A stretch of DNA of 59,372 nt, filler included, from Sphacelaria rigidula (taxonomy: Eukaryota), in assembly GCA_964200075.2 (NCBI GenBank). It is 3 parts of 3 records of this genome, joined end to end, with 100 filler letters (N's around TTAATTAATTAA, not from the genome) between each part and the next. Parts side by side here need not be neighbours in the genome. Positions count along the whole stretch, not along the records: positions 39,651 to 59,372 come from CAXNAA020000624.1; 2 more parts are not named here. One strand, given 5' to 3'. This document shows positions 7,729 to 59,372 of the stretch, in pieces (within the stretch, counting starts at the first letter, position 1; each line of letters begins with the position of its first letter). A model generated the notes under the pieces. The model saw only the letters and a program-made list of their open reading frames with translations. It did not search any database and was not told the origin of the DNA. Both the position numbers and the translations under genes were made by a program.

Positions 7729-8347
7729 AGTTGCTGTCGCTAGATGCCGATGCTAGTGCTTCAGTGCTTGTGAGGCGCGTGCTGGTGTTTCTGCCGCGCT
7801 TTACTGTGTGGAACCCGTTTCGTGATGGAATGGGCCTGACAACACCTTTTCGTGGTTTGGGGTCAGAGGGGTGGTATATAAAACAAAATTGAGGTGTAGA
7901 CGGGAAAAACGAGGGGAAAATATATGACAAATAGAACAGTCGTCGTTGAAAGATTTACTTTCAACTCCTGAAAAACACGCCTCCTGAACTATTGTAAGAG
8001 GAACTGGTTCCACGGTTTCGCAAGTGAAACAGAAAAGTGCCGGTTCGTGATGAAAGAGGTCGGGTTCGGAGTTCGAAGTTCGAAGGACCTGGCAGTACTC
8101 TTGTACTGCATAGTAAAGTTGAGTGATCCAACGACAGGGGTGGGTGGGTGGGTCGATTATACGACACAGAAAGGTTAAAAGCTGAGTCTACACGACCTTG
8201 AATACCGTTATGCGTCGTCGTAGATTCGTGTGCTGTGCAGGATCTGTTATGGTGTGTTAGATATCGACCTAGTCATCACTTCGATACGATAGCAAACCTT
8301 TCAGCGTTCGACATTGTTGATAAATTGCGATACATTTCAGCGGAGTC

Positions 8348-11300: not shown

Positions 11301-11644
11301 TATCAGGGCGGTCATCACCGTGGATGGGGCCGTGCCAATCAGGGATGCGGGCGCGGCGGCCGCGGTAGCAAGCAGTCGGCGATGGATGGTGGTTCCTCCG
11401 CTGCTGTTTCTTCAACGACGTCATCAGATCATAACTCTGGATCTTATGGTTCGTCCGTAGCGGAGTGGACAGTGTACGTGGGAAATGCTAATACTTCGGT
11501 GGGGAGAGCTGGAGCGAATAGTTCGCAACCCCTCGGCCAGGGAGGATCCGTGTCCGGGGCATTTCCTACGGCTGCGACGGCTGTGACAGCGCGTCTGCAT
11601 ATTCGGCGACTTGGTCTGGTTCGACCGACAATCCGCAGCTATCG

Positions 11645-12355
11645 ATGCCAAGTGCTGAAGGGCAGCCCTGGTGTCAGGTGACTCTTAGTACAGAACAGGG
11701 TTCTTTGGCAGGCGTGGTACCTGTCGATCGCAAGACTGAATGCTTACGCGCAGATGTAACCTTGCCTGGTTCTGTAGGTTTGTTCATGGCCCGCATTATT
11801 CTGGATTCTGGGTCCGCGCTCACGTCGACCAGTGTGGGGTTGCTAGAGCAGATGTCTTCGCAGTTTGGCGGCGCTCAGCTTCAGATGCCGTTCGAAAACG
11901 GACCGCAAACGGCACAGACCGCCACGGGTGCTCCCGTGACGGTTATACACAAACCGGTGCCGATTACTGTTAGCGTGCGTACGCCGTGGGTGACTGGGGA
12001 TTTGCAGCCCATTCCTTTCGCTGTCATGCCCGGTAGGGACAACATGGTTCTGTTTGGGATGGCGACGATGAAGGAGCTCGGGATTGATCTGTACCCGCTG
12101 GCGTTGGAGAAGTTACGCCCGCGTGCTGTGCCGGTGCAAACCGGCTTGGAAAACCCCAGTTACCTTGCTGCAAGGCGTGTGATCGTACCTATACGGTCAT
12201 TCCAGAGCGCCGATGAGGAGGAGGCTCCTACGGATGAAGTGGTGAAGCGCTTGGTCGGTGGGACCCGGACATGTTTATGGACCCAGCGGAGGAGAGAGGT
12301 GAAAGAGGACGTGCGCTTGAGGATAGTCTGCGGCAGGCCGAGCAGAAGGGCCTGA
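11645..12355 (+). pseudogene. Gypsy aspartic protease region
   Basis: IILDSGSALT active-site motif and a downstream VLFGMATMKELGI motif. Confidence 0.8.
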
Positions 12356-12453
12356 GCACCGATGGCGCACATTGTCTGCGCGATATGTTCGCTCGTCGCG
12401 TAGATATATTTCGTCGTGCGCTGCGTGGTGATCCCCCAGCGCGCGTATAGTCA

Positions 12454-19826: not shown

Positions 19827-20170
19827 CCTGTTGTTCGGTGCTCTGTGCCCGCCTGTCTTTTTTTGTTTGTTGATGATGCGGCGGCCGCCGGGGTGGACGG
19901 GGGCGTTCTCATGTGTTGCTTGCCTTAGTCGTCTGACCATTGACCACGCATCTCTTTCTAGACGAAGCACTGGGGGGGGGAGGGGGGGGGGGGGTTATGT
20001 GGATACCATCTCTGAAATGGAAAAATACCCAGAAGTGCCTGTGGGGACAATCGCCTCCTTACATCAAGGAAAATGAACAGGCGATCACAGAAAAAAGCCA
20101 ACACACGCAATACAACAAGTCGCGGTTACCAAGATAAAATAGTGTCGTTCGATCGATAGAGGCAGCATAC

Positions 20171-23100: not shown

Positions 23101-26100
23101 TCGTCTGCGTGCCACCTCAGACACTGCGCGCGTACAGTACATGAATTGATGCACACCACAACTAGTGCAGCACCATCACTTTGCGGCCGCGGCACAACCA
23201 ACTGCAACCGTAACTGCCATTTCATCCGTTTCTTCCCCTAATTCCGCCGCACAAGCCACCCTCACTCTCTCCACTTCGCAGCTGACTACAGTTCGGTATT
23301 TCGTTCGATGGGAACTTGTCAGATCGCAGTGCTACGTGAAGTGAAAGACGCGCGTTGATTTACAGATCACCACGATGTGTCATGGTAGGCACAACTCGCG
23401 ATGGATCGTCCGTTAGACCCGGCTGAGGGAAAGTTCGCTTCTTAGGCGGCCCAGCCTGTACTTCAGCAAATGCATCCATCATGGTAACACGGTGGTGTTT
23501 TTCCATTTTGGAATTTGAAATGTGATCGCACGGGACTCACCCTGTATCAGCTGGTGTACACTTCCACTACACACGACAGAACATGCTAGCAGCCATCGTT
23601 CAAGGCCAAGCTTGTGCTTGTATCTTCGTGCAGTAGTAGTGTCAATTCGTCTTTACTCACGCATTTCACCGAGGCAACGGTGTGCCACTTTGGGACTTGG
23701 TGGATACTACTGGTAGGCATGAGTTCAAGGTATTCGTAGGGAGTGGATCTCTCTCAGTGGGTGCTTGGTGGATGGAGATATTATCAGGGCTGTGAACTAG
23801 CAGCTTTGGCCAGTGAAGTATCGATGTTTTTCCAGTTAATCGGCTTCGCTCATCAACTGGATCAACATCGGCGGCGACTGGCGAAGCCGCAAGCCCCAAC
23901 GACCCCCACCGGCTGGTGAGGGGGCCTCGCGGGAGAGCCGCCGGGGGCAAAACAAATTGCGGTATTTGGCTTGTTTTTCCTTTAAAAATGTGGATAGTTG
24001 TAATAAACGTGACCGCATTGAGGAGCCAAAAGGCTTAGGTAACATTAAAATTCGAAGCGGTGAACGATTCGAAATGATTCATCTGTAGCATGCAGCAGCA
24101 GAGACTCTGCGTCATGATGGGAACAAGGAAGCCAAGGCTGGCAGCACATCTTCGCGAACGATTTCCGTCGACGTATTCGAAGCATCCTCCGTCTCACTTG
24201 ATTCCTCATATTCCTCACCAACTGTAAGTGCAGGCCTGAATCGTACAGTCAAATTATATATGACGGTGTAAGCGTCTCTGATAAACTCAGTATACAAAAA
24301 TTGGTATAAGAAAAGTCGGTAACTGCAAACCTCGAATAAACTGGACTACTGGCGCGCTCGCCGCAGGTTGCAGTTCAAATCCATTTCCAGTTTGATCGAC
24401 AATATAAACTGGTCCAATTAATTCACAGCTCTAAATATTGTTGACTGTCGGGTGTTTCAGCATTGAAAGTGCCGTCGAAACCATGACCAAAAAGCGACAT
24501 CGACATAATGAGCACGGCGGTTTCGCCGCATAATTTGTCATATCATATCATATCACTTTGGCTGTTGCTGGCAAAACCACGCTCTCTGAGCGTTGTATGG
24601 TTCATGTAACACAATTTTTCATCAAACTTCCAGATCCATTTACGGAGTTGTTCCGAACCCGGTACTTATTTCTATGAGACGTGAAAAATATATGTCCATT
24701 GAAAGCTGTGTTTCAGGCAGATCAATCCATCGGTTCGCTTTTTCATGTTTGTCTCGTGTTTCAGGTGAATAGTGGTCAAGATTTTGAAGCTAGATAAAGA
24801 GGCATTTTTTCCTTCTCTCTCCTGATCCCGGATCCGAAGGCATCTCGTTGAGAGGCACCTTTGTGGCGAAGAATCACAACGTTTTAGCCATCATGGAGTG
24901 AGAGAAGCAAAATAGACATTTTTCTCCCGCTTTAGCTGTGGAGATTCGTGCTCGATATTGGATCAAGGAATGTCGAAAAACTCCTCGAATTCGGACAAAT
25001 TGAAACTGCACGCAGGACCGTTCTTGATTTGTGGCCCGAGAAAAATGCGTGTGAATAATCCGGACCCCCCACCAATGCTTTTTCAACCGAAACATGTTGA
25101 ATTTGGTATAATCGTGGATTGGGTCAGCGCTCCGGCACCGCGTCAGTACTCGTCAAATATAATTTTGTTACTACTCATGTCTCCGTGTTACAACGAACGA
25201 CAGATCTCGGATGTTACTCAGTGAAAGACTCGTGATTGCCGTGATTTTGACCATCAATCTCCCGCCCCAACAGGTTTCAGTTCTACTAGGTGGACCGCGA
25301 AGCCTTAGTCAAACACGTTCAACAGGAATGATCAAAATCTGACTTGGAGCGTCTCTCGCGACGCTTTGCAACTCAACACTAGCGTGCAGATTGCAGGAGG
25401 CATACTCTGCGTTCTTACGTATATAAATGCATACCTGGGTTGGTGACAATGTATGCGGCGTCGAGGTCTCTTCTTCACTCTCCGGCATGACCATAGGCTT
25501 TTCATCTCTGACACCTGCAGGGGGGGGGGGCGGAGGGGGCGGAGGGGGGAGCGGCGGCGCCGGCGGCGGTGCTACCTCGGCCGGTAATGGTGGCTGTGCT
25601 TCGGACGCGGGCAAGGGAGTTGCCGGAGTCTCAGGCGGTGGATATTGTGGGTAGACGTGTGCCTGCTGCGGTTGTGCAACATATGCCTGCTGAGCGTGTA
25701 CTTCAGGTGGCTGGGGCTGTGAGCCATATATTGGTGGTGCAGTAGAGTATCCTGCCCACTGTGCATACTGAGGATCCTGATAGCCGTTGTATCCCTGATG
25801 GCCGTAGCTGTGGTACTGCTGGCTGCCGTAGTCCTGGTATCCACCGTAGTAGCTCGCCCACTGAAGGAATATAGCGATGGAGACAGGCAAGCATAGTAAT
25901 TGCTGATAGCAGTGGGCAGATGAAGGCCTCGGAAACCAGCGCGGAGATGTACTGGCAATATTTAGGGGGGGGGGGGGGGGGGTACTTATGATCTTGCATG
26001 CCGTAGCCATATGACTACTGACCTCGCATTTTTACAAAGCCTGGAATAAGCACGCTTGGCTTTCGCCGGACCAGGCTCGCAATCAATCACCAAGCACGAA

Positions 26101-39650: not shown

Positions 39651-39717
39651 CGTGCAAGAGAGAAATGCCACTTCAACCCCATATTTTGTATGAACCCCAA
39701 AATTTAAAATCGGCTGT

Positions 39718-40300
39718 TATTTGATTGATCGATTGATTGATTGATTGTCGCACTTTAACTGACCCCCCAGGGGTTCAGCCGCCATGGTCTCAAGATAGAT
39801 GTATACCCAGGAGAAATGAAACTGAAAAACGCGCTGAAGAAAAGAAGGAACAGAGAGAAGAAAAAAAGTCGAACAAAACGACACAGCAGACTAAGTCGTA
39901 ACAAAAACAAGTTATGAAAAAGTCAACACAAGTAAAGCACAGAAATGGTTGACCTAAAAAGAAGTATAAAGAGGAAATTCAAGAGCAAATAAAATAAAAT
40001 AAAACGATGAAAAAAAGCAAAAGGCCCAAGGAATTTAGGGCAGCAGAGTAGATACAGAAACACACCGCAGTAGGCACCAACAACCGATATGAGCAGACAG
40101 GATTCTCCGAGTGGCAGCCTTCGACGCGTGTCCTCAGACTCTTCCGCTCCCTTTTCGACTCCAATATACCATTTGCCCATGTTCTTCGCCGCAGCGACCC
40201 AATCGTATGCATCGTTTACCTCTACAGCGTAGACGAACCACTTTCGTAGAGCTCCTTTTTATGCAAGCTTGCGTCACCGGGAAACGTCACTCCGAGTTCT
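39718..40300 (-). mobile_element. RTE-like LINE 3' end with (CAAT)n tail
   Basis: MGKWYIGVEKGAEE remnant and 3' UTR are homologous to 17600-17950; gattgattgattgattg tail at the left edge. Confidence 0.72.
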
Positions 40301-42584
40301 AACCGTAGTATAAGTCGCAGCCGTCGCCTGGGGTCCACAAGTTCCGGCAAGGATGTCACATGACTGACCAACATTGACCGCTCTTAACGTCCTCCAGTTG
40401 CAATCGGTGTCACATTCCTAAAAAATAACCATCAGGTCCAGTTATCCATTCGGGGGCTCTCAGAAGGGTTGGGGGTTCGGTGAGCCAGAAGCGCAAGCAG
40501 TTTTTTAACGAAAATACAGCTTGCTAGTTGTGCTGCATGCGATATGTATGGACACTCCCGATCGACTGCCTAAAGTGAACTTGATGAGGTGCTGGAGGTG
40601 CTAGAGGTATGTGTGAGTGTGTGTCCGTATGTAGGGAGAGACATTCGTCCCTGGAGGCTTCGAGAGTTATTTCATATCTTCCGAAAATCAAAGGCGAGGC
40701 ACAGGCGCGTTGACCCTTCATACGACGGTTTCGTCCAACCTACGGTACTGCTTCCGTATTTTCTTTCTTCAGGAGATGAAAAGGAGAATTATCGTCATCA
40801 AATGTCCCTCATCATTTTCGAAAAGCAAGGCGAAGAAAAGCTACGGTAGGTACGGCAGAGGAGACCTCGATATTCGATTCGTCCCTTCACCCCCGGCGGA
40901 ACAAAGGGAAGGAGGGCGAGTGGTACACCATCCAAATTCGTTTTAAGCTGCATCGTTATTTCCGCGAGAAGGTATTGGCCGAACATGCACAAACAGACCG
41001 TATTACAGTAGTTGTAGTAGTTACTCGATATTGTTTCTTCTCACAAACATTTGCGCACAACGTCTCATCATCTCAGTCATGCGCGCACCTCGTTCATCTA
41101 CATACTAAAAGCAGATGAGCCTTTACCCGAGCAATCTAGTCTCGACACATTTACTTCAATGAAAATCTGCGTCACTGAAGGAAAGAGGAATCGCAACTTC
41201 TCCTCCCCCCCCCCCCCCCCCCCCCCCCACACGTCGTACACGCACAAAACAGAACGGAAGACCACACACCACAACACAACACNNNNNNNNNNTCTACAGT
41301 GTGGACGTGGGGAAAAGGAAAGATAAAACGTCCCCCCCCCCCCCCCCCCCCCCATCAGGGGCAGGTGTGTGCTGCACAAAGCGTGGACCGCGAGGACAAC
41401 GATAAAGAAGCTGCCACGCAACGCATCGATCAATCCGGTTCAAGTGTTCCAATTCTTATGAGAAGAAATCATATAAGCTAGACTCCATTAATTTACGGAA
41501 GCTAAAAGTTAGACCAACCCCACCACACTCATCACCCAAGTACTCAGCACGCCAAAGCGGGGGTCTAGGCCAGCGAATGTTCACTGACACGAGTGAAAAT
41601 ACCATGTACCTCAAGCGCAACAACGTAACAGCGGGATTCACACCGCTTCCAGGAATCAAAACACTCCCTCTCCCCCCCTCCCCCACACACCATACAAGTC
41701 GTACAAGCACAAAGCAGAAAACACATGGTGGAAACAGAAACAGCTTATTCCAAGGGCAGCTCGGGTAGGGTATATACCCGATGTTTTGATATATTAAAAA
41801 AGTTGCCAATCACCTGCTCAAGCCAGTCACAACGTTATCGGGTACACCCCACCCGACCTGTACTTGAAGCTTGCGTGTACAGCACAAAAAAATAAACAAA
41901 ACAAGGTATTCGTGCATGCAGACGGCATACTGAACGGACGGACGGACGGATGGGAGCTACTAGGGGAAAACAAAATCCGGCCGATTTTCGCGGGGCAAAC
42001 GTCACTCGACACGGCGTCGACCAACACCGAAATGTTCGCCCTTCGTCATATTTACTCTCACCCAGTCCACTCCCTTCCAGAAACAAAAGCAAGGCAAAAA
42101 CCAGGCTTGAGCCCATAGGTTCATTACATGCGCAAAACACACGTACATGTGTGCGTTTGCTTCGATATAGGTCAAGGCCTTCCTGTCGCCGACACTGAGT
42201 GCCAAGGGAATCGACACACGCTTGCTTTTTTACAGGAACACTTTAGAATTGTCAGCGTTCTACTTTAGTAGCAATTCACGATCTCGTCGTCGAGTCGATG
42301 CGTAGATATGCGGTGAAGCTATTTTCGTGGTTGAATGAAGACAACAACGAAAACACAATAAACAGCAACACCGAATGACACAAAGAAACAAAACAAATAA
42401 ACAGGACAACTAAGCAGCAACATACACGGCAAGGAACGTTCACAGACACGAAAAAAACACTTGGCCAGTCATCTTTTACCCCAAGTCGACGGAAAACCAT
42501 GAGTTCAAACCACGGCATTCCCTTCTTTTTGAGGGAAATCCCAAAAGAATGAAACAAAAACACAGTGTCTTTCAGGAAATTTCA

Positions 42585-45500
42585 TCATTCCAAAGCGGAG
42601 GAAGCGAAGGCGATCTTCAAGTCACCATCGTCGTGACGGATCGAAAAGTCGCTGGAGAATGGCCCGGACACGCGGTAGTCCTCTTCGGTGCCGCGAACAG
42701 CCGACATACCCCGCATGATCGGCTTTCCAGTAGAGACATCAACCGTAGGATGTAATGTCTCGCCCAGAACGCCCTGCGGGTACATCCCGAGGAAGGCGCG
42801 CTCGATGCCCATATTCATCTGGAATGTACGGTGGTCCGGCAGATCAAACTGGTCGGTAGGGTCCCTCATTGCCAGCTGTGGGTAGGGACGGGACAAGAAC
42901 GCGACGCGTAGGGCAATGGACGGGACAGGACGGTTTTCGACTCGAAGAGCTTGAGACGATCAGCCTACCTGGTTCCGGTTTCGTGTAATAAGTGGATTGA
43001 TGGAGTCATCACGCATGACTTTTTCCGTTACAAATCCAAGCATTGTCACAAGATAAATTTCCCCGCGCCTACTCGAAGTAAAAAGCAGCTGTTAAGGGTG
43101 AGCACATTCATGCATGAGGCATGCCACGCTCTGAACCGTATATCTGGCTCAACTTTCTCCGCCCAACCACTCACGCTCGAAATCCTCGTTCGTTCACATT
43201 CTTCCTCAACTACACGCGGTCTTCGCGCTGGCGTATAGCAATGTTCTGTGATTATCGAACCCGGACCAGCCATCACCAAGGAAATTTCAGTGGATAGAAG
43301 AACTTCGGCCACCGGTACGACCTCTGCACCACCAGATCAGAAAGAGTGTCGACAGGATCACCCACACACACCTACACAAAAATATGTCGAGTTCGTACAG
43401 TACAGTACAGTACAGTACCTGGTGCAGCTTCCCATGGTTGAGACGTATCGTGAGATTTGGCGTGACAATCTGGAACGACGTGTGCTCAGACTGGTAGTGG
43501 AACAGGGAGTTCTGCGCCACATGCTTCGCCACGAACGACTTGCACTCCTGCATGTTGGTCGCCTTCGAGTCCCCCAGGATCCACTCGTCCATCGGAACGC
43601 TGTACCGGATGAAGTCATCTAAACGACGCCCGCCAGCAGCCCCCGGGGCCGACGCTTCGGCCTGCCTGACCTTCTCGGCCCAGTAATTCTCGAACCCGAA
43701 CGGCCTGCACTCTCCGGGGATGTTCACCGCACCCACGGAGAACCCGGATCCTATCTCGACTTGTGCGGGGGAAATCATGGGCTTCTCGTCGAGCAGCACC
43801 TCGATCGCACCATCCGCCAGGCACGGAGTGTTGGTGGGGCAGTAGGTCGGGGTGTAAAAGTCCTCCGGGTGCTTCACCCTGACCTGGACCGTGTGCATGA
43901 CGCCGTCCGCATCCGCCGCCTGGAGCGCGAAGCCAACGATGTACGTCACGACCTGAAGGGTGGGCACGGGCGCGTGCAGGAGCATGGTGACTACCGTGGA
44001 GGGCTCGTCCTCGGTGAGGAGGGCGTAGTAGCCGCCGTCCTGGCCGGTGAAGTCGAACTTCTGCCCGCGGAAGCCCACCAAGTGGGGGTCGCCCTCGGCC
44101 TCCACTTCAGCTGGAGTGTTTTCGGAGGGAGGCGGACGTGTAATTGGGATTCATACCGGCAGGAGGGAAAGAGGGAGAAGTGCATGAAAAATTGCAACGA
44201 AACAGCTTTGAGTGCAGCCAAACCGACGAACAGCAGAGGTGCTTCGTTGCAAAAGGAGGGAGAGGGGGGGGGGGGGTCAGGCGGTTCAGAAAGGCAATTA
44301 CGGAGACCGAGAAACGGGCGTGTGTCGTATCCCCGTCCATGGTTGCAAGCCGTCATGTCGCGATGTGCGCGGAGAAGATTTCCGTCTTCATTCTTGCTCG
44401 TTCAGCGTTCATGCTGAGGACCAAAATAACGTTTTTTATTTGTTTTCACCTTTTCTCCATGTGCATCTTCAAAGCATGTCACTAGGTACCAGTTCGGAGA
44501 AATCCCAAACATTGGCTTCACACGGCGTTGTCACCGAATGAATCCTCCGGGCACACAGCATACGGACAATCTGACTGTCGTTTTTTCCAACTGAGCATTG
44601 CGTCGTTTCCACAGCTGGACGGTCAAGAATATAACGCAAACGACAACATTTTCAGCTGCTGTACCTAGTACGTTGTTCACGCATCATTACATCCCAGCAG
44701 TCATCACAGTGCACAAAATGAGTAAAACTATTTCGACGACAGTGAACGTACATTCCGTGCATTGGCTGGGAGATTCGCCACCCAGCGGCGACTCCTTGCA
44801 GATCAGGCCTTCACAGCACTCATCGTCCGTTCTACACTCGACCTCGACCGGCAAACAGCCCGGAGATGTAAGCACTGCAAAAAATGGGCGAAACCAAGAG
44901 ACGAGATGCGAGGAGAAGTCGAAGGAAAGTGAGAACGGATCACGTGGAAAAAGACTAGAGTAGCAGAGAGTGTGCGGCACGAGTGAGTGTCGCGTCTTAC
45001 TTGTACAGCGGGGAAGCGGGGATAGCTACGCATCTCGAGCATTGGCGACGAGGGGGAGGGGGGCACGACCACGTACTTCACACCGTTATCAATAGTTTAG
45101 AGTGCAACAAGTTTGAAGCTTTACAACTGAACGCATTTCGTATTTCAATTTGTTGTTACCGTAATGAGTCGCGGCTTCTGCTTTATCCGACACAATGTTC
45201 AAAACAATTCTATTTTCTACCATTTTCCATCGAGACACGGGATCATCGATCGTTGAGGGTCTTACGAATATGCAGCCTACGCCTCATCGCGTTGGAGGGG
45301 GGAGGGGGGGGGGGACCGATTCACCTGTTTCACTTCATGTTGAGATGACGCACTATTTTGCGTGTCGCGTGATGACAGAAAACTCCGAGCGATGAGAACA
45401 AACACATCCCACGCATCATGAACCGGGCGGAACAAAAGTACAGCACTACTTTTACATATGCGGACAACTGTGCCTAATGGCAAGGTAAAAAGCATACACT

Positions 45501-48500
45501 CATTTTGGCGATGACGAACGTGCCCGAAAGCAATTCAACATAATATACGTTCTGCATACATACATGATGGCGGAGTGTATATCTCGACATCAACCACTTG
45601 ACAGCAAAGTTTTGACAGCAAACGGTATATATATATATACTTGTCAAGATTTCTACACCAACTCCAATTCCATTATGAAAAGGAGCACCGTTCAGCACCA
45701 TGAAGGGGATAGCACCAACTATGTGGTTTGTCTGCGTGTGCATCGGGTAAAGGCGTTTCAATATTCCTAGTATAAAACCCCAACATAGATCCTCAAAAGG
45801 TGGAGAACACATCTGGAATGAAGGTAAAGTTGCATGGAATTGAGAGTCAACCTCAACGACGAAACGAAATTATGTAAAAACGAAAGAAGTATTCCACTCT
45901 AGCCAAAAATAAGGCCCATTAATTTTGGAGCTGTTTTGTTTTGAGATCGGGCTTGCAAGGTAATAGATGACTCTCCAGTGTTCGCGAGCGCCAAGGCGTA
46001 CACACGAGCCTCGACTTTCATTTCTCAGGGCGAAGGAAGCCGGCGGCCCCTGTGAGAGTCTCGTCACCACACCTGGCGGCCGCCGAAGGACCTCCAGTGG
46101 TGGTGTCGATTCGGCCGGATGCCGATGTCTCCCCCCGTACTCTACTGTACCATCAGTATACCTTCGCAAATGGTCTCGTCGCCATCTTGGGGAGTCCGGC
46201 ACGCTAAATTACTCTCGCAGTCAGTGTCATTGTCGCAGGGATCGCCGGGCTGTCTGGGGGCTGCACGCGAAAGTACGAAAAAAAACAAAAAACACACAAC
46301 AGACAAAATAAACAAAAAGGTTACACAGTACGGTTAGAAAGGAGAGAGTGATATGCTATTCTAGAAGTCAATGGTACAGCGCGATGAGAAAAACTGCAAA
46401 AAATGGTGAAATGATGAGCCAGACCCTTCCTTGATTATCGTCAACCTCGGCCGGGCGTTCTTTTTTTTTGCTCAAATCGTCCACATTTTTTTTCCCTGTA
46501 TATTCGTGAAGTTTGTGACCTACAACATTGTCTCAGTATCTTACGTGACAGACCATCGCAGGAGAAACGAGGTATGCGCCACACTTTGTGCGTGCGTCCA
46601 CGAAATGTCGCAAACGGTCCCGAGGGAGTGGGGAAGGAAGGGGTGTACTCATTATCATGCATGCCATAGTCATGAGTACACCCCACCTCGATAACTATTC
46701 AGCCCGGGACCCCTACATATTCTGCAACGGTCCCTTCAGGCTCAATTTTCCTATCGCGATGGTATCGCGATAAAAAGAACCCAAATTTCTCCATCGCAAT
46801 AGAGAAATTTGGCTCGGATAGCATCGCGATAGAGAGAAAGCGCGTTTTCTTCATCGCGATACCATCACGATACACCTAATTTACTTGCTCAATCTGGCGA
46901 AAAGAGGTCTGAACGGCTGTTTGAAGCAGCCTGAACGGCTTTTATACACATGATGCAAAATGTCGACACCCATGATGAAATTTTAACCATGACTGGGGTA
47001 ACGGGTCCCTTCACGCGAGGACCTTGGGGGTACGGACCCCTTCCCGCGACAATTGTCACAGGATCACACAATTTCTTGCAACGACCACTGGCAACACTTG
47101 GGCGACATTAAACATTTTCACGAGGAAATATGTAAGACCAGACACATCACCTTGATTTGATTTTCTCTGGTCGTGAACGATGGCATCGCGATAGCATCGC
47201 GAGAGAGAAATTTGTCTTTCTATCATGATGCTATCGCGATACCACTTTTAGGGTCAAATAGGCCTAAATGGACAGTTCCAGAATATGTGGTATATTGTTC
47301 AGCCCCGGGGCTGAATACGAAATATGAGGCGGGTGGGGCGCACTCGAATGCACTGCAGGACACCAGACATTGCGCAGTGCAAGGCGAAGGTTACCACCCA
47401 TCTCCTGGGGGACAACAAAACGAAAAACGTGAAATGATCCCTGTCACGTTGCCGCAAGCACCTTGAAGGAGGGCAAAATAGAGCGCGTAGCACAAACACT
47501 CAACATTTGCCTACAGGCCGAATGATGCACAACATCATGCTAATCAAAAGGGCGGGCGACTCACTTCTGCATTCAGGAGTTCGCATGCCCATGGCAAAAG
47601 ACTTGCAGTATAGGTTTCCGCAGCAGTCCTCGTCCATGGTGCAGCGCCCCGTTGACTGTTGGCATTCTTTCCGCGAACACGCTGTGAATGTCGTGGCACG
47701 AGAGGAAGGCGGGGAATGTTCAAGGTACGGGCGGGGTGGTGGATGCGGTGGAAGGAGACGGTGAACTTCAACATCATCTTGTAGGGTGTATCGATTATCA
47801 TCCATGGAAGCGATTGCTCAAATGCTTCTCGACATCTCCATCCAAGGAGCCGAACCGGGGTAGATCTATGGCACCCGACGCCCAAGCCGGGGGGGAACAG
47901 GTTCCAACGACGACGATAATAAATATACCTGTGACGCAGTGAAGTGATTCTACTCACTCTTTTCGTACGCTGCCGAGAAGTCATAGCCAAAGGTTGACAC
48001 ATTACTTTTTCCTGTTCCTCTCCATGGAGGATGAACTCCGACACAGTCCGAACCCCCCGACAAATCACAATTTGTAGGGCATGTACGAGTAGCAGTAGGT
48101 GAAGGAATGAAACCATACTCCGAAGATTTGGTTTGGATACGAAGATCTCAACCCTCCGAGTTCTCATCCTCAAGGAAAAGCTCCATCCTCAATTTCGATG
48201 ATCGACTGTTTTTTCCAAGAAAAGCCGCAAGGCTTGTTATGGACACGAGGACGTGAGGGTCCAGAGTCCTCTTGACCAGAGTCGACGCGGTGCGCGAGTG
48301 CTGTTTCAGCCCGAGATCACCGAAGGAAAAGGCATGTACCGGGGGGGAGATACGGGTTTTCGATTCCTGTGAGAACACGGACTCGTCCCGAGGAAGAATT
48401 GGGGGGTCGAGACAATGACCAAAATACCAATACACGTCATTTCAACCTGGTCGAAACCTATGACTGACATGACTGTACTCACGACCTTCGTTGGTTTCTC

Positions 48501-51500
48501 GTCGCATCCCAGCCGTGAAAGGATTTGACTGGCGTGCACGCAACTGATTTCAAAAGCGGTCGGGAAAATGTTGATATCGGACACTCACCTTGGCAATCAC
48601 TGCGTAAAGCGGTCGTCCCCTCGGTACACCCGGGGGGTGTACTCGTGCAGCAAAGGACGGGGGGGAGGTGTTGCATGCATACTACAGAATAAACGAGATA
48701 CCGTTTCACCCACCTCCACTGTCGCAGGCGAGGTCACGACAGCACTCAGAGTCCCCACTGCAGACGCCGTATTCGGAGACGCACCCAGGTGGCGGCGATG
48801 AAGTTTCTGCACGGATCAAAAGAAATAAGGGACGGTGGGGGGGGAGGGGCGAAAAGAGCCCCAGGAACACAAATCACACAAGAGGGTTCAGTGAAAAACG
48901 CATGTAAACTTTCTCGAAGACTTGGGACAAAAACAAAATCCTCTTGCACTCGCTGCCGGCTCGATGTGAGTAGTTCAGTCAGTGCACGAGTAAGTTTGAC
49001 TGAAAGACGTTCACCAGCCGCATAATATATGTAGGTCTTGGAATTGAAATTCAAAGCATTTTAGACCGTGTTGTTCATACGACCTGGCGGGATTTCCAGC
49101 TCGACGGGCGATCAGATCGGACGGCAGACGGATCATGATGTGAAAACCTTGATCAAGTGTCGAAACTGTTCGCTTCCTCAACAAAAGATGTGGTACGTGG
49201 TCCGATCCTGGCATGACCGTTTGTGGAAGGAACGAGTTTGATCTGTGAAGAAAGTGAGCGGTCACTGGTTCGGGTAAACTGTTCTCTTCCTGAACAGCGC
49301 CTGGTTTAAAGGTGGGGTCATCTCGAAGCTCGTCTCGTACTTTAGGGCCTCGAATATTAAACGACACTTCTGAAACGCACCGTGGCAGTAGTTGTCCCCG
49401 CCGCACTCCAGCCCGTCGCAGCAGTCTGAATCAGTATCGCAGTACTCGTCCTGATACTTGCACGGCTCTGATTTGCAGCGAAAACAGCGAAAACAGCAAG
49501 AGAAATTAGCATAAAATAACACGCAAAGAAATACAAAACATATGAAGATGGAAAATAAGTTAGCATCCAAAACATTCTTCATATTGAACGTGTACGGCAA
49601 GCGCACAATAAGCCCCATCAGTGATGAAAATTACCAGACTTGACCTGACCACGACCGTTCAAAAATGGTGAAGTTGAGACGACATTTGTTCCGCCATAAA
49701 AACGACAGAAATGGAACAAAAAAAATCTAGACGCGTCGCACGACTTTCAAAAGCTGGAAAGTTTCACGAACGGCAATGAGCAGTTCGCGACATTTTTTCA
49801 AGCAGTACCCCTTAGCCCTGACGTCCGGTGGGACTGAGCTCTGCTCAGCTGCGCTTCGAAAAGGACCTGGTGATAGCGCTCCCCATAGACCGTCCCAGTG
49901 CTGCACAACACCGACAGCCTCCTGAAAACGGAAGGTGACTGCACTGATGGCATTGACATCGGAGTACCTCCGTGTCAGGAGGCTATGTCTCTCGGCTCCG
50001 ACAGCGGGCGAACTGAACTACGCTCAGCAACGTATGCTTAAAAAAAAACTTGTGATCCAGTGGTGCTGCTGAAGGGATCGCGCTGGTGCTGTGTATCACA
50101 GGGGGCTAGTGACAACGGCAGACACGATTTTACTGCTGGACATTAGCAGTAGATTACCTTGGCAGAAGTTTTCGTCGCAGATCAGGCCGTCGCAGCACGT
50201 GGAGTTGTCGTCGCACCACGCGTTCTGGTCCATGCAAGGCTCTGGATAGAGACCAAAACAATGAGAGATATGAAAGCATGGAGAAACCAACGAGACCCAA
50301 CGGCGATCAAGCGCCTGTATATACATGTGTACGCAGTGAAAACATCACGAAAAATAGTACTGCTACTGTTTATTGTTTGTTAGTGACGTAATGCAATGGG
50401 GAGAGTTCCGAAAAACACGGGTTCCTCTCGGTAGCGGATACGTCTAACAATTATAACACTATTTCGAAGAAAACTCGAGATGTTTCTTCCAGCTGTTTTT
50501 TTCGACCTTCGCCTGTCTCAACTTCATGAGATATGTACCAAACCGTACGCTGACACGACAAGGGCTGACAAAAGGAACATGCGTTTCCCGAACCAGTAGA
50601 AGTTGGACGCAGCACATGGAAAAAAAAAACAATGCGCACGTACCATCACAGACGTTGCTTGCAAAGTCGCACACGAGGTCGTCGCAGCAGCTCGTCGCCC
50701 CATCGCAATGGTCGAACTGAGCCGCGCAGGTCGGGGGGGGATCTGGTGATCATCCATCCGCGCACACGAACCCATCGCCCAAACAAAACGCAAAATAAGG
50801 AAGGAAAAACAAAGAGAAACGAACGGATTCCGAGCTCAGGAAAATTATTCCTGATCTCCTCTCGCTACCGTCTACAGTAATGCATCAAACGATATCACGC
50901 AACCTTTGTTCACGTCCCGCATTTCCCCCTCTATCACGTCCCGTTCCTCCTAATATAGTTCACATTTTGTACCTGTATGACTTCTGCTCTCTATTCCATT
51001 GCCACAGGGGCAGGTCTGTGCATTTACTTCCTCCTCCACACGACTACTGGTCATTTGTACTACTGTCGGGGGAGCGGGGGTAGGTGCGCGCGAGGGTAGC
51101 AACCAACAAACGGGCGCTGACGAAGCTTGTATGGATCACCATTTGGGTGTCGTTTTTATGTCATAAATACTCACCAATGCAGCGACTTCCGTCGAAAACC
51201 AGACCATCGCAGCACTGCCACCGGTAACTACACCGCTCGTTTCGCTCGTAGCATTGCTCTAGTGTTGGCGTACACGGAAATGACAAAAAGGCACATACAC
51301 ACGGGCGAGCACAGGGAAGCGTCGGTCCGTGGTGCACTGTAGCATCAGCGCAAGCCGGGGAGACTTGACGCGTGGGGCAGGATTTATATGGAAAGAGAGC
51401 TGCCAAGTGGTTCAGAGGCGGCATGTACAAGTAATAGCAGTGAGACGAAAAAAAAAGTGGATCGCTGTGGAGCTAGACCCAACGGCACTGAAGAAGAAAA

Positions 51501-53178
51501 TAGGGTAGATGTGGGTCCTCTTCGGCCGTCACGTACTTTGGATGCCGTATTGGCTTGACAGATGACATGGTGATTTCATTCGATTTAAAACATCCAATAC
51601 AAACTGACGGCGAAACGCAGGCAACAAAACAGTGAAGAAGCTCAAGAATTACCAAGGCCCAAAAAACGAGCACGAGGTGAGAGAGGACGAGAGGAAGCAT
51701 GACAAGCGCACATACTCTTTGGTACATGCTGTGGCACACCTTTGCACGTCCCGCCCTGGCATTCCAAGGAGCTGCAGCAGTCGTCGTGGCTGGCGCATGA
51801 CTCATCGGCCATGCTGCATTTGTCTGCAGTTGTTCGAGGAGCGGAGAGCAGGGGGAGGAGCTGATCATATCGGGAAGACTTGAGACGTACTTTCGATCCC
51901 GACGATACGAGACGACCACCAACATGTGCAAACGATTCGTCGATGATCCTGCCGCATTTTCATCACTTCGAGGGCAGAAGCTCTCGTCGGTAGAACGTCA
52001 ACGAGGGGCCTGAAACACCGATACACGAAGGAATAGCTGAACTTCTCTTCGCTTGCGATCCACGATGCCTACTCCTCGATGACAACAAGCATGCAGTGCG
52101 GGCCGTGAAATTCGTAGTTCCCAACCCTTGAAACGCGTAAATGCTGTCGAGCTGAGGCAGCAGAATTTGGCATATTTCATGTGATGATTCGAAGGTGGAT
52201 ATATATCATATATATCTCACCTAGGGGATTATTTCACGACGATCTGAGACTCCAACGAGTCGCACAACCGCCGTACGGCAAACGAGGAACGAGGAGGCGG
52301 TCACAACATCTCCGGGGAGAAGGAACGCCACTTGCCTTCCCTGAATCGTGAGGCTTTGTATTGTCGAATGAAGAAAATTAAGCAGTACTCTGCGCACATG
52401 TTTGCGGTTGTCCATCACTCATCTCACCCCAAAAATCGCCCTCATCGAAGAAGACCCGCTACCTCACACCCCAAACGGTCCCCGGTGTGGATTTGTGAAC
52501 TCTAATGTGCCGATTCGTACCTTGGCAATAGCCCCAGCTGCACTGCATGCCGGTGCAGCAGTCGTCATCATGAGAGCAGGTGTAGCCGGCGCGTTGACAT
52601 CGTTCCCCTTCGAAATTTTGCAAATATTAAACGGGGGTGTGTGGACACGACGCGACAGCAGCATGCGTTTTCGATTCAATAGAGAAACATGCCATCATAG
52701 ATTTCTAGCGATTATAACACGAAACCGCGCACCACGTCGGCTAATTGATAGTAACATCTTACCAACTCGCGTACTGCCATGTATATTATAATCCGACACT
52801 ACTGGCCCGCACTCCATCCGGCCATATCGAGATCTCGGAACCATGACGGTATCTCACAGGCTAGGAATGTGACGATGATACTTGATGCTGTGGATCGTCC
52901 ATCGATGTATTACGATATCATATACCAGATCAAGCCAATTTTAGAGGACGATGCGCATCCCTATCTTTTGTGCCCTCGTGTCGAAGAAACAAAAATGTGC
53001 TAGTACTCGATACTAAGCTGTTCTTCCTCAAGTTGCCTTCAGTTCACGCCACCCTTGCCCTTTTATTGAACTCACAATCTCCATCGTCGTCCTTTCGCCG
53101 TCCTCCTCTTGTCCAGAAGGTTGCCGAAGCTGGCAAAACAAGCAGCAACGCCGCCGCCGCAGTGCTAAGCCCCCTCAT
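42585..53178 (-). CDS. Secreted multi-cystine-knot (knottin/ICK-like) repeat protein with C-terminal GDPH vWD/root-cap-like domain; 13 exons, about 682 aa
   Basis: Exons: 53178-53076 (MRGLSTAAAALLLVLPASA signal peptide), 51823-51740, 51258-51175, 50742-50644, 50241-50158, 49467-49381, 48806-48714, 48681-48589, 47681-47565, 46260-46162, 44874-44752, 44110-43419, 42875-42585. All introns are GT-AG. The lengths sum to 2049 nt with no internal stop. Confidence 0.82.
43419..44110 (-). CDS. Exon 12: vWD/root-cap-like domain starting EAEGDPHLVGFRGQKFDFTGQDGGYYALL
   Basis: GC-rich coding ORF (43287-44105 in the track), acceptor ctccag| and donor CAG|gtactg. It continues in frame into exon 42875-42585 (LAMRDP...GVLGETL...RGTEEDYRV). 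Confidence 0.9.
46672..47347. mobile_element. Nested MITE-like elements in an intron
   Basis: Outer inverted ends gagtacaccccacc..tattcagcccggg / cccgggggctgaata..ggtggggcgcactc. The inner element is gacccta...tagggtc with repeated ATCGCGAT palindromes. Confidence 0.45.
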
Positions 53179-55154
53179 CTGCTCGGCTCATTCATCACGC
53201 GACCGAGATATAGGCACGCGCGGACGAAGGAACGTGCGCGACAGTGCATTCACGAGAACGAGCACAAGATGAGGACGCGAGGATACAGATGGATACAAGT
53301 GTGACAGGATCGCCACAAGCGGTTGGCGTTGGGGTTGAAGGAGACGGAGGGGGAGCGAGGGGGGGTGTATTCATGATCTTGCATGCCCTGGTCCCAACAC
53401 CACAGATCTCGCATCCCTACAAACACCCAAGACAAAGCCCACTAGGGTTTAGCCAAACCAGTCTCTCAACCACCAAGCGTGAAGCGCCGTGATCTCGCCG
53501 GCGAGACATATGATGAGCGGTGACCTGTTTCCTGTGAAGCCTGTTCGGCCCGAAGCGTACTGATTGCAGTAGTTTCCAGCAAAATCAGGGGGTCTTTGTA
53601 GCTCTTTTATTGGCGATTTTTGGTAGTTCTTTCGCATATCACCGCTCGTCCCAGCGAACGGTTGATCCCAAATTGAAAGATCTGGGGATACTGAGCATCC
53701 GCTCTGAATTCCGAAAAAAAAATCATCCCAGCAACATTGAACAACTCACGGGATGACCGGTCCAGGTTTTGACCTTCGAGTATTTCTGCTCGATTGAAGC
53801 GATCCCAATCGCTCTCGTGAACTATGTAAATTGATTATTTGTATAATTTTCACCTATTATTCGAGCTGGAGCCAACAAACTGTATTTTGGACCAGTGACG
53901 ATCGTCAACGCCCGCTGACATACGAGGTCCTTGCTCCGTGTCACCTACCACATCGACTTGAGGATCGTGTACCGAGCACCACCTACTTGTTCCCCGGTTT
54001 AGATCAGCGCTAGGACTTTCGAGAGCTGAACGATACGTACTATTCGAGAAAATCCAGAAAAATATCAAACTACGAAAATCACACACACGAGCCTTGTATA
54101 GCACGAAGGGAGACGAATCCATCCCGATCGCTCTCGTGAATATTTTTTCATACCCTTATTTCGAGGTTCAAGTATTCATTGCGCAAGAGCCGAAGTAAAA
54201 TGTATATAGGAAAAAACTTCCGATCGGATCGCCGAAATTCCCCGAAATTGGATTTTCCCGTAGGACCTCAACATTTCGGTTNNNNNNNNNNAAGATTTTA
54301 ATCCTCCGGGTTCTTTTCCTCAATGAAAAGCACCATCCTCAACATAGATGATCGGCTGTTATACCCAAAATTTATTCCCCGGCTGATGACGAACGCAAAA
54401 CCCAGCCAATATGCCGAAATGTGTTACTATAATGACCGCAATGAACAGACAAACATTGTGGCATGGCCATAGTTCGTTCAGGGCAATAGCGGTGGCGCTA
54501 TGGACCGAAGTATGTCTCGAGCAATCAGCGCCCTCCACATTGTTCCGAGATCGAAAACACGAATTAGAAGTCCAATTACAACCAAATCTGCACATGGTTC
54601 AACTCGTAGTAGCCATCATCAGCCTGGAAATCTAACGGGAGAAACAGAGTTGAAAACGATGCCAACGGGGTCGAATTACGCTCAAAACCGGTAATGTTTC
54701 GGTGATGTGGAGCTTCGGCGTCGTCCAACTTCCTCCCATGATATGTACGAAAGATCCACGGAGTGTCGTGACCATTTCCCCTTCATCTGTTGCAGAAAAG
54801 CTCACATCATCCTCAAACTTGGCAGTTTTGTAGGAATTGATGCTTCAAATGGAAAAATTTCATTCTCGGCAAAATTCCAGAGTTTCTCTGTTCTCTACCG
54901 GCTTCCGCGGGTCCCAGCATGAAGACCCACAGAAACCGGTACAGAATGCCTCAACCCCCAAAATTATTTCGACACCTTGAGGTTAGTGGTATCCCAAGGA
55001 ATATTTGTGCGAATTTTCATGACCCAACTCGAAAATCTAGACTAGAACAGCGCGTGCAAGCCAAAAATAACCGGTAAAGTCGTCCCTTTATTCTTCAATC
55101 AAGTAATTAGGGGGACACGCAGACTTTTTCATACTTCAGCGCACGTTTCGCGAT

Positions 55155-55435
55155 TTCCTCACGCCGGTTTTTCCAGTTGGACCACGAAAATTTGTACACA
55201 TATTTCTTGAGGGCACTATCCAAAACTCGAAAACCGTTTTTTTATTCCAATTTTTTTGTTTTTGACTTTTCATCCAAGGTCGCGGTTGACCTACTTGACC
55301 GGGGGATGGGTCAAATCCCGACCATCTCGACATCAATTTCTTTTTCAAACCCCGGTCTTCGAGTTTTAGATAGTGCCCTCAAGAACATGTGTGCAAATTT
55401 TTGTGTTCTGATAATATGAAAAATCGGCGTGAGTA
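55155..55435. repeat. Foldback / long inverted repeat, probably a non-autonomous DNA element
   Basis: ctcacgccggttttt...aaaatttgtacacatatttcttgagggcactatccaaaactcgaa pairs with ttcgagttttagatagtgccctcaagaacatgtgtgcaaattttt...aaaaatcggcgtgag. Confidence 0.75.
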
Positions 55436-55686
55436 ATTCCCGGGGAATGAATTTTGGGCGTTCAATTTGAACCAGCTCGTAAAACACTCGAGTACTCAAA
55501 AGTACATACTCTACTCGACCTGCCCTCCTTGGAGATTTGGAACAAGTTCCAAGAACGCTCCATGATCAGTAATGAACCAAATGCGACCCCCGTCGCGATA
55601 ATGGACGAAGAGGTAACATATTTGCGGGGACAGCCAACGGCAGAGAATTGCACATACACAAGAGTGCCGTAGCCAAGACCATATAC

Positions 55687-56046
55687 AGTGTGTGTGTTGT
55701 CGTCCCATCTATTTTGGACGCCAGTCTACACCTTTCAGGATATGTGGGCGCATCAGCCGGGGTCACACAAGAGGAAGCTCAACACAGGAGATTTTTCCTT
55801 TCCATTTGTTTTTATTGCAATACCCCACCTTCCTTCTGCGGTGCTTGCCTTTATTTTTTTATCGTGGTTCAGCAGTCCCTTTCCCTCGTCGACCGTTCAG
55901 TCGATTTTCGTGTACCCACGACATAGTCGCTCTCCACTGCTGGGCACGGTGTAAGAAAAAAATCCCAGATCGCTTCGGGAATCGAACCCCACTATCATCC
56001 GTCAGAAGGTCACGAGGTTACCAACTGAGCCACCGGAGCGAACCGC
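55687..56046 (-). mobile_element. tRNA-derived SINE, full-length and best-preserved copy
   Basis: Reverse strand reads ccggTGGCTCAGTTGGtaacctcgtgaccttctgacggatgatagtggGGTTCGATTCCcg (Pol III A and B boxes), then a body of about 280 bp and an ACACAC tail. Confidence 0.85.
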
Positions 56047-59000
56047 TACACAGTACAGTGCAGTATTCCACGTGGAACACTACCTTCGTCTGGAATGCGA
56101 CGCTGAATTGTTGCAAGCTTGGCGCCTAGAGGTATGGGCATAATAATGTGTTGACACCACACGACGCCGCAACGGCGTTGGCTGGCCACGTGTTCAAGGG
56201 GCTTGAACGCCAGTCCCTCAAACACGCGTGATTTAACACTTGCTTGGCGACTCCTTGTCAGATGTTCCAGGCCACACCCTCATCGATACCATACAGATAA
56301 TCTTGGAGCCATATAAAAAAACTCTCGAATATCTGCCGATTTTCGGCAACGTTCGATTGAATAAAACGGAGAGACCAACGGTGAGATCACCTTCCGCGAA
56401 GCTTGCATCCAGGCAAGACGAAGGAACATCGTGTCCTACATTCACCGCTTGTGGCGGACAAACCAAACACACCTCTGACTGAGGGTATCACGCCCCCACA
56501 GACGCGGCGCACTCGTGTATCCGATGTACAGTGAGTGATCACGTCGTCGCCGTAAATAGCGAGCGAACTAATTTCTCCGAACAGCAGGATGCCCACGCTC
56601 GAACTTCATCACACCAATCCCTGGTGTGGGTATTGGGCTCAAATCGGGTGAACTTTGGGCGGGAAAAAATTGGGCGCGTACTTGAGACTTGTGGATCTGT
56701 GACTGGGGTTGTACGCGGTCATGATCGAAACCGGAGCAACAGGCTGTGGAGATAATCTTGAGATAATATATGCTAACGTGAGCCGCAGATCCTCTAGGGC
56801 ATCAGTCGCAGCACATTAATTGAATTCATACTGTGATATGCACGAAACGGGTTTTTGCTCTTCTCGTGAATACCATGCCGATTCAACGCATGGCCCACCA
56901 TGGTGATCAAAGGGACAAACGATGAGCTACTCAAGCACGTGAGAGGCCGTAGGTGAAATGTGGTACCAACAGTGTATCAAAACCGAACCATAGAAAGTGC
57001 GGCGGAATCAAGCAGATTTTTCGTAGAGGGTTGAATTAACGGACTTTGAAGTTTTGCCCAGAAGGACGCAGCCCACGCGTTGACAGTGGGGATTTCAACA
57101 CAATGACACGATACAATCGGTGTGAAACGACACAACGTGAAGCTCTCCGAGCGGGCCATACAGCCACCTTTCAAGTGTTGGTAATACTGATTCAAGGCCT
57201 CACCCACCCTTGCGGTCATCAACGGATCCTACTTATTACACGCATCAACACCAGCAAGCGGATTTGTAATAATGTTTTTGGGGCGTAACGGGATGAACGG
57301 ATATCCCATTATTTGACATGGAATATCAACGGTCGCGAATTGTATGCGGCTTACTACCGAAACTTGGAACCCCTACGAACTATGAGCAATATCGGAACAT
57401 GCGCGCAGTAGCTCCGTGACCTTTTGTCTGGCTTTGTTCGAATCTCGATGGCTACGGAGGTCGGGGGGAGCGGGGGGATCGTCGACTCTTGACGTTCAGC
57501 TTGCCACGTACACCGCAGACGCCTCGTAATACGGTACTGTGCCAAACAGACACGGACTGGTTTGAACGTACAGTACTCCATGCAACAGAAGTGGCCAGTG
57601 CCCAAAATGTACTCTCAAGATCTGTTGTGCCGCACGGTATACAGTTGCACAAAAGTGTTGCAATTTGTCCGGTACCGCTGTTCATCATTGCTGTTGTCAA
57701 GCAAGCCGTAGACGTGTACAGTCAAGACCCAACCAGGCTGTGAGGTGTCAAACCAGATGGTGTACGCAAGGGCAGAGCACGATGTTGATATCCTGAGGGG
57801 GCAGCTGGTTACGCCAGTGCTCGATGTTACACTCCAGCCCTTTTTCCTGACATGAGTGCCAGTTCGGACCTGGTGTCGAAGTAGTGTGTCTTCTCAGGGA
57901 CAACGCACTTGACATTCCAGCACGGCGCGCGACACAGCCCGACAGAAGGTGTGCAAAATACGCCGGGTGTACACCCCTTCAGTCCAATCTTCCGTGTATG
58001 ACCACATTTCATCGTTGTATCCTGTGCGAGAAAGTAACCAAATGTCCTCTCGCTGCCCTCAGGGTACAATGCGCTCGCTGCCCTCAGGGTACAGTTCGCG
58101 CACTGCCGCCGCTATTTATGAACAAAAAGATCCTCTGGGCGCGTGCAGGTTTCCATTGGATACGAGAAGATGCAACACATACCTCAACTTTGAACACTAA
58201 ACTCACGTATGCGCACTGCCATGCGCTCTATAATTACCTTGATATAGCCCCTGTGATAGCACTCTCCGCCTCGCAGCCTCCCACTTCAGTCACACCACCG
58301 AAACGTATGGTACCGTGACTACAGCACGCGGGTGGTCTGTACAGCTTGCCGTGTGAGAGAAGGGGGAGCTGCCTGTGCGTGATGTGCCTGTGAGGTGGGT
58401 GCTGTTCTAATAAATTTCATTTCGAAAAGATCCAAAAGTTTCTCACGAGTATCCCATCGTGAAAATGACGCTATGTCATTCACCGATGTTCTCTCCTACT
58501 GTACGTGCTTGCACTTCTTATGCCCCATTCTGCTGTCTTCCTCTTATGACTCGCTGCCACTGGTAGTATTGCTGTCCTTGTCTCTTCAGCCTGCGAAAAG
58601 AAACACTCCGCGCTATCGAGCGCATGCGTGTCTCGCGTTGCATGCGACATGAGCAACATGATCGACATGCATTGTCGGACGGAATTTTGCACCGCGACAT
58701 TACACATACTGTACTAGATTACTGTAGTACGATCAAAATTTACTTCCCAGTGATTCCTCACGCCGGTTATTCGTTGATTATTTATGCCGCGCTTTTAAAG
58801 GCCGACAAACATAAACGTCTGGAAAACTGCCTTTTTGGAGCTTCTGCGTCGCTTTGCGCCCTAAAGGAGAGCTGGACGGATCTTGACAAGTTGGATTGCT
58901 TTGTTCGTTGAGACGGTTTCAGCACAAATGTGCGTTTATCCGTTGGCAGCAGTATTTTCCTTGCTCATACTAGTATTTTTCCAGGTTTGTTTTTGTCCGG

Positions 59001-59372
59001 ACTTGACCGATCTCGGACGAAAATGAGCGGTCTCCGAGAAAAACACAAGTGGGTGCTGGGTCATAGAGTGTCGTTTTCCGGGTTGAAATTCTTGCGTTTC
59101 TGACTCTGGGCGGTATTTCCAGCGGCAGACATCCTGAAACCGATTGGCGAGGAGGCTTGCTCTTGCATGCCGCCAGCGTCGAGATGCTGCTCTGGCAGTG
59201 AGATACTGATTTCACCCTACGTGGTGGCGATGTGAGAGAATAACCAAGTGGTGGGGCAGGGGTCTGTCGAGAGAATTTTTCGGGCACGCAGTCCCCCCCC
59301 CCCCCCCCCCCCCCCCACGCGCGCCACTTCCGAAAAAACACAACACGTTTTGTGTTTTGTTTTTGGTTTGTT

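Follow-up and report, generated by a model that had tools for sequence, protein, structure and literature searches.

Ten knottin-type module exons and a GDPH domain of predicted VWD fold in one gene of the brown alga Sphacelaria rigidula

The gene and its transcript

The window (the whole stretch of DNA that was analysed, 59,372 nucleotides (nt)) was taken from the Sphacelaria rigidula assembly GCA_964200075.2 and consists of three parts of three records, with 100 filler letters between each part and the next. One gene on its minus strand, located in the part from CAXNAA020000624.1 (positions 39,651 to 59,372), was analysed for exon structure, history and probable function. This gene (Table 1) encodes a protein of 679 residues with a signal-peptide-like N-terminus, ten Cys-rich modules, the motif GDPH at residues 360-363 and a C-terminal domain of 320 residues. 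In a preliminary description, ten Cys-rich exons at this locus had been presented as symmetric phase 1-1 cassettes and as a substrate for exon shuffling or combinatorial splicing. The explanation favoured here on balance, taken as a whole, is a single gene with constitutive splicing, whose brown-algal product would be secreted.

Contigs of 4 of the 8 listed sequencing runs were placed on the window. Three runs (X1, X2 and X3, from one study) were treated as RNA because 12 canonical introns were spliced in them, no run being on record as RNA. In their contigs the 13 exons were joined via 12 consecutive GT-AG joints, the pieces shown agreed with the window at every letter, and each of the three runs gave a single unbranched path as an all-exon contig (X1, 3327 nt at depth 254; X2, 3304 nt at depth 369; X3, 2094 nt at depth 442). 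The N-terminus is called signal-peptide-like on the basis of its hydropathy (peak 1.67), and no second hydrophobic stretch was present in the 679 residues. At the 5' end, the X2 contig carries 31 extra letters unplaced beyond 53180, and CAG precedes the ATG, so an upstream 5' exon may exist (53178-53181, minus strand). At the 3' end, the X3 contig breaks just past the stop codon (42519-42556) with higher depth downstream, which is a possible 3' variant.

Table 1. Coordinates of the gene and of its parts in the window.
Feature	Position	Strand	Length and content	Evidence
Whole gene	53178 to 42588	-	13 exons, 12 introns	
First coding exon	53076..53178	-	ATG at 53178, signal-peptide-like start, dibasic site at residues 27-29, phase-1 donor	RNA joint and piece 53075-53180, translation
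Module 1 exon	52521..52607	-	87 nt, 6 Cys	Dickkopf_N E 2.6e-5, 24.9 bits, just below cut-off 25; RNA
Module 2 exon	51740..51823	-	84 nt, 6 Cys	RNA, translation
Module 3 exon	51175..51258	-	84 nt, 5 Cys (fifth Cys replaced by Phe, one Cys unpaired)	RNA, translation
Module 4 exon	50644..50742	-	99 nt, 6 Cys	Module chosen for folding (predicted local distance difference test (pLDDT) 87.1, knottin matches)
Module 5 exon	50158..50241	-	84 nt, 6 Cys	RNA, translation
Module 6 exon	49381..49467	-	87 nt, 6 Cys	RNA, translation
Module 7 exon	48714..48806	-	93 nt, 5 Cys; stops short of sixth Cys	RNA, translation
Start of intron after module 7	48589..48713	-	In-frame stop at sixth-Cys position; contains the false exon of the preliminary description	Not exonic in RNA
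Module 8 exon	47565..47681	-	117 nt, 7 Cys; the first of these supplies the last Cys of module 7, with the customary C-x4-C spacing	
Module 9 exon	46162..46260	-	99 nt, 4 Cys (Cys I and IV lost together)	RNA, translation
Module 10 exon	44752..44874	-	123 nt, 6 Cys	Toxin_12 (knottin) 24 bits, above cut-off 21
692-nt exon	43419..44110	-	Phase 1 in, phase 0 out; GDPH and most of the domain of predicted VWD fold	RNA joints, homologues, predicted fold of homologue P0042
Last coding stretch	42588..42875	-	End of the domain of predicted VWD fold and stop codon	RNA joints, translation
3' untranslated region	41500..42587	-	>1 kb, extends past the stretch shown by contigs	Pieces 41500-42875 in X1 and X2

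Exon geometry and history of the array

The lengths of the ten module exons (Table 1) were all multiples of 3 and every flanking intron (11/11) was in phase 1, so the geometry given in the preliminary description holds for the RNA-defined exons. Nine of its ten listed lengths belong to real exons; a false 93-nt stretch was included and the exon of module 1, outside its range, was missed, and its count of ten was right by coincidence. As it gave no exon coordinates, its second 93-nt exon was matched to 48589-48681, the sole candidate of 93 nt and phase 1-1 in the corresponding position of the series. This candidate was rejected: the joint in X1-X3 runs from 47681 to 48714, the depths of bin 48589-49005 (56.6, 82.3 and 98.5) correspond to exactly 93 covered nt and not to 186, and the upstream intron would measure just 32 nt.

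Eleven successive phase-1 introns would have a probability of 2e-7 to 4e-5 if independent, with the share of phase-1 introns set by assumption at 0.25 to 0.4. They are not independent, because copying one symmetric exon copies its phase, and a row of introns all in phase 1 is what old tandem exon duplication should leave behind. The exon-phase finding by itself is ordinary, symmetric phase-1 exons being the residue of tandem duplication in secreted modular genes.

Nine of the ten modules are confined to one exon each, and module 7 straddles two. After splicing, the first of the seven Cys of exon 8 finishes module 7, which has five Cys in its own exon, at the C-x4-C spacing seen in modules 1, 2 and 5. 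Because module 7 draws its sixth Cys from exon 8, exons 7 and 8 are not free cassettes. The earlier statement that exons can be left out in any combination with the frame intact applies to the reading frame and not to the fold, since skipping exon 7 or exon 8 alone leaves an unpaired Cys. When the intron after module 7 is read on in frame, Gly-Gly-stop-Asn is followed by GT, with the stop standing where the sixth Cys would be. This suggests that the exon 7/8 border slid; alternatively, the border may have been inherited from an exon arrangement of the paralogue type. In the paralogous arrays on contigs G000:C165 and C20620, 15 of 16 module-bearing frames had a possible phase-1 acceptor lying one codon ahead of a Cys (acceptors predicted and hand-picked from candidate lists, with no RNA). 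If these acceptors are right, phase 1 would be a family trait, yet exon and module borders would often differ.

The module copies are old. Outside the Cys positions, the 45 module pairs had a mean identity of 17% in amino acids (maximum 40%) and 37% in nucleotides (maximum 53%). No recent duplicate of a module was found within the gene or against 36 modules at other loci (best nucleotide identity 62%), and self-BLAST of the gene gave no exon or intron duplicates, only one palindromic element, and no intron sequence common to the modules. Best partners at module level were scattered, and the pairwise identities were too low for an exchange of modules between genes to be demonstrated. Profiles of the ten modules (nhmmer and hmmsearch) matched exactly the ten exons on both strands of the window, with nhmmer scores of at least 30 bits and a next match of 7.9; no spare, inactivated or inverted module exon was found in the introns by these searches, by which the one doubtful stretch at 48589 was not detected. 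It is very probable that the array arose by old tandem duplication, followed by divergence and fixation of module order: a single knottin exon of phase 1-1, flanked by the exon for the signal peptide and the one for GDPH-VWD, would have undergone tandem copying long ago, and the copies would then have diverged in an order that is now fixed.

Tandem knottin modules form a small family in this genome, with 46 modules on five contigs and at least 36 of them on the four contigs other than that of the window gene. Exons of the C165 array hold between one and seven modules; Pro/Thr linkers occur in it, and blocks have been copied recently (75-90% nucleotide identity, up to 100% in the cores). On the sequences compared, exon duplication is alive in the knottin family, in a paralogue and not in the window gene. 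G000:C165:13400-25437, C20620 and C15650 (L036-L040) carry a large mucin-like knottin array with multi-module exons, in which variation in length is more to be expected than in the window gene, and these contigs may be parts of one gene. On G000:C5445:9298-10614 (L041), a single open frame encodes three WSC domains and, after them, four knottin modules, of which three are nearly identical. An Atlas search with the paralogue array reached scores of 0.79 only. No description of tandem knottin arrays was found in the literature searched, which left most subscription papers outside; Zambounis supplementary table 2 (a screen for same-length exon runs) and the Phaeoexplorer supplements may list such genes.

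The case for the ROCO genes of Ectocarpus was built on equal-length exons, spare and inverted intronic exons, recent recombination and positive selection (PMC3341825), and splice variants are reported for arrays of this type (PMC11378527). Immune-like diversification of the window gene, by combinatorial skipping or shuffling of module exons as in the ROCO LRR (leucine-rich repeat) and NB-ARC-TPR genes, would be favoured by the symmetry of all ten exons, by highly variable loop residues, and by the C165 array, in which recent block duplication (one block including an intron) indicates that the mechanism is active in the module family. The stretch 48589-48681 (minus strand) also counts in its favour, having a good donor and a weak likeness to module 1 (3/300 shuffles, best of 10 comparisons), with neither RNA cover nor profile match, and being possibly a decayed exon. 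Against these points, one major transcript was obtained in all three RNA runs, and no skipping of a module exon was seen among the 15 joints listed from the X1-X3 contigs, which drop rare forms and have 21 weaker joints beyond those. Exon lengths range from 84 to 123 nt in place of one fixed length (72 nt, or 42 residues, in ROCO/NB-ARC-TPR arrays), neither recent nor spare and inverted copies were found as described above, and loss of exon 7 or 8 singly breaks a module. Such diversification is thus improbable, and the present data do not support it for this gene; the part of the earlier proposal that stands is an array formed by duplication of a symmetric exon and encoding presumably secreted units of predicted knottin fold. 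Past shuffling is expected background, because a Phaeoexplorer preprint (10.1101/2024.02.19.579948) already connects the reorganisation of domains in brown algae with the gain of introns.

Predicted folds and the GDPH motif

The spacing C-x6-C-x5-CC-x4-C was followed by all ten modules, and the Cys set was complete in 8/10 once spliced (module 3 without Cys V, module 9 without Cys I and IV). Knottin disulfides pair as I-IV, II-V and III-VI, in agreement with module 9, from which I and IV have disappeared together. Pfam profiles of the knottin/toxin type matched 8 of the 10 modules, one above cut-off. The model of module 4 had knottin peptides as its top structural matches (best root-mean-square deviation (rmsd) 0.6 Å over 25 residues, Z 3.4; 0.6-2.3 Å in the top rows), mostly venom peptides with some enzyme inhibitors. 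The modules are accordingly predicted to be knottin-fold units. The array has a net charge of -47, inter-module linkers down to 3 residues and one internal dibasic site (residue 244); given the charge and the single site, one acidic chain fits better than a string of processed toxins.

For the C-terminal domain, no Pfam family was assigned to either of its two exons and no Pfam VWD match was obtained. The homologue P0042 (53% identical) was modelled with a predicted template modelling score of 0.76. Its model matched MUC5B (Z 12.6, rmsd 3.0, 160 residues aligned), VWF (Z 12.4) and FCGBP D10 (Z 11.5, rmsd 2.7, 147 aligned); 21 chains were found at Z of at least 8, and the 19 entries listed at Z 9.6-12.6 were mucin, VWF, FCGBP and RGMB VWD domains, the next fold being at Z 4.0. 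A VWD fold is thereby predicted for the C-terminal domain. The GDPH Pro of P0042 (residue 67) was aligned to FCGBP residue 4081 and RGMB residue 169; cleavage of FCGBP D10 requires Asp4080 and His4082 (PMC10880436). GDPH was invariant in 12/12 rows of the domain alignment, as were all four Cys of the domain, and because this number is even no tether between cleaved halves is evident.

The GDPH-VWD domain is the better lead. It probably self-cleaves, by a cut that would fall between Asp and Pro of GDPH, and may so release or anchor its cargo in wall or mucilage. Self-cleavage itself is rather probable, and a matrix or adhesion role has a chance slightly short of even. The proposed order of events would be secretion, folding of the ten knots, Asp-Pro self-cleavage, and then a many-armed acidic binder either displayed or set free, with the ten-knottin chain as a stable binding scaffold in cell wall or mucilage.

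Other functions were weighed against this one. A bolder option, unlikely and not adopted as the default, is that cleavage leaves a reactive Asp that would bond the array covalently to a wall polysaccharide, by analogy with the bond of ITIH3 to chondroitin sulfate (PMC8267560); the constant position of the GDPH-VWD domain after its cargo and the lack of an odd Cys to tether the halves agree with this, but the FCGBP cleavage product was hydrolysed, no cross-link being found in the same source. Slightly less likely is a precursor protein cut into single modules, which would serve as defensive knottins (toxins, antimicrobials or enzyme inhibitors). Toxin modules had been put forward in the preliminary description, and the profile matches, the mostly venom-derived fold matches and the dibasic site after the signal peptide agree with such a precursor; the charge, the short linkers and the lack of regular processing sites within the array do not, a common knottin fold does not establish function, and in sister arrays the modules stand beside WSC domains and Pro/Thr linkers. 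A published list of wall proteins of brown algae includes WSC proteins (PMC8307928). The least likely function is that of an uncut protein, in which GDPH would be structural only and the array a spacer holding the VWD domain. Some VWD domains are indeed uncleaved or cleaved to an unknown purpose (PMC10880436), and Cys residues are lost in two modules, but GDPH is invariant at the cleaved position of the FCGBP and RGMB chains and the Cys spacing is strict throughout the array.

Several points weigh against the explanation of a secreted, self-cleaving knottin carrier with a fixed transcript. The VWD model was made on P0042 and not on the window protein, and the knottin Z-scores are just 2.0-3.4, low as expected for 32 residues. 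The three RNA runs represent a single study, with rare variants dropped by the contigs and the weaker joints outside the listing. The decayed-exon-like stretch at 48589 and the hydrolysed Asp of FCGBP belong here as well. No orthologue was found among 3265 candidates of 404-2000 residues (best match of the C-terminal exon 56% identical), nor any candidate orthologue with module 10 as query, both being weak negatives.

Relatives, neighbouring features and known systems

All of the homologues with organism names (25 of 41) were from brown algae. Of 185 homologues of the C-terminal domain, 76 had GDPH and none had a ten-knottin cargo; a six-Cys CC module ended at most 10 residues from GDPH in 42 of the 63 GDPH homologues with at least 40 upstream residues. 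The cargos upstream in 41 long homologues were PF13582/PF13688 (8), LRR families (3), PF00082 (2), PF00188 (2), PF13229/PF22842 (2), ankyrin (1) and PF03067 (1), and we take the accessions to denote reprolysin-like, subtilase, CAP, beta-helix and lytic polysaccharide monooxygenase domains. The GDPH-VWD domain thus sits behind many unrelated cargos in brown algae, and in the window gene a phase-1 intron lies directly before it. A paralogue exon used as query gave one weak match (P0186, E 9.8e-4), which likewise counts as a weak negative in the search for an orthologue. At least four distant relatives of the C-terminal domain occur elsewhere in the genome; three of its distant relatives, L003, L004 and L006 (G000:C3340, C7668 and C7307), are mutually very alike and have DDPH in place of GDPH.

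In the Atlas, the second match was labelled 'Imm upregulated 3 family' (score 0.95), an automatic name with a recognition of 1851, below the mark of 2300, and hence weak evidence; Root_cap, VWD and ITI_HC_C rows were also listed, with a VWD and diatoms row at 0.90. That family is described as brown-algal, gametophyte-upregulated and female-biased in Fucus (PMC4421812). A wider proposal, tentative and doubtful, is that it would be a self-cleaving GDPH-VWD carrier related to the diatom adhesive GDPH domain, which would have gained proteases, LRRs, CAP, polysaccharide-active domains and knottin arrays via phase-1 introns and would release them into, or bond them to, the algal wall, with the window gene as its ten-knottin version. 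Should the carrier cleave itself, there would be a testable mechanism for a family whose expression is sex-biased and linked to the life cycle (PMC4421812), and brown-algal wall proteins would be linked to mucin-type and diatom adhesive chemistry.

Within the introns, a palindromic high-copy element (inverted repeats, summed contig depth >13,000) lies between modules 8 and 9 (46630-47300), and other high-copy repeats lie at 50880-51050 and at 48093-48218, the latter with 54292-54368 (a 77-nt repeat, of which an 81% copy precedes the gene). A small transposon is suggested by inverted repeats (33 nt, 94%) at 55149-55461 and 58729-58772. Elsewhere in the window, a frame at 7180-7752 (-) may encode a light-harvesting (fucoxanthin-chlorophyll) protein, broken frames at 10540-14384 (+) resemble a long terminal repeat retrotransposon (protease, integrase, chromodomain-like), a frame at 16094-16660 (-) may be a DDE transposase fragment, and putative exons at 20059-26031 (-) encode a Pro/Gln/Tyr-rich protein that resembles those of LENG8/SAC3-family genes.

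Compared with the Ectocarpus LRR-ROCO and NB-ARC-TPR arrays (PMC3341825, PMC11378527), the window gene likewise belongs to a brown alga and has symmetric exons that each carry a single repeat, but its phase is 1 and not 2, its exon lengths are unequal, intronic or inverted spare exons and a signalling domain are lacking, and splice variants were not seen among the joints listed from the contigs. Sponge aggregation factor genes are likewise secreted and modular, with 154/155 introns in phase 1, taken as a trace of past exon shuffling (PMC5400394); they are animal genes, and their modules are Calx-beta, VWA, VWD and Wreath. Inhibitor cystine knot (knottin) peptides share the C-C-CC-C-C framework and the predicted fold with the modules, which form ten tandem acidic copies in one chain and not single processed peptides. 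The GDPH-containing VWD domains of FCGBP, MUC2, MUC5AC and RGMB (with ITIH3 as a related fold) are alike in predicted fold and in the equivalent position of GDPH, and FCGBP gave a weak sequence match (E 2.8e-7); the domain described here differs by an identity of 11-17%, the missing Pfam VWD match, no C8/TIL assembly seen, no evident Cys tether for cleaved halves and a single C-terminal copy. The 'Imm upregulated 3' family shares the label of a near Atlas cluster and the restriction of named homologues to brown algae, and is set beside the window protein on one automatic label. Diatom GDPH-domain proteins (Ac629; 87 in Seminavis) are secreted stramenopile proteins found in adhesive trails and termed diatom-specific (10.1101/2023.03.06.531300, 10.1101/2020.03.16.987719), and are likened here by their published description; no description of a GDPH-VWD domain in brown algae was found in the literature searched. 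Set beside these systems, the part of the finding that merits attention is the protein itself, a ten-knottin array joined to a GDPH domain of predicted VWD fold.

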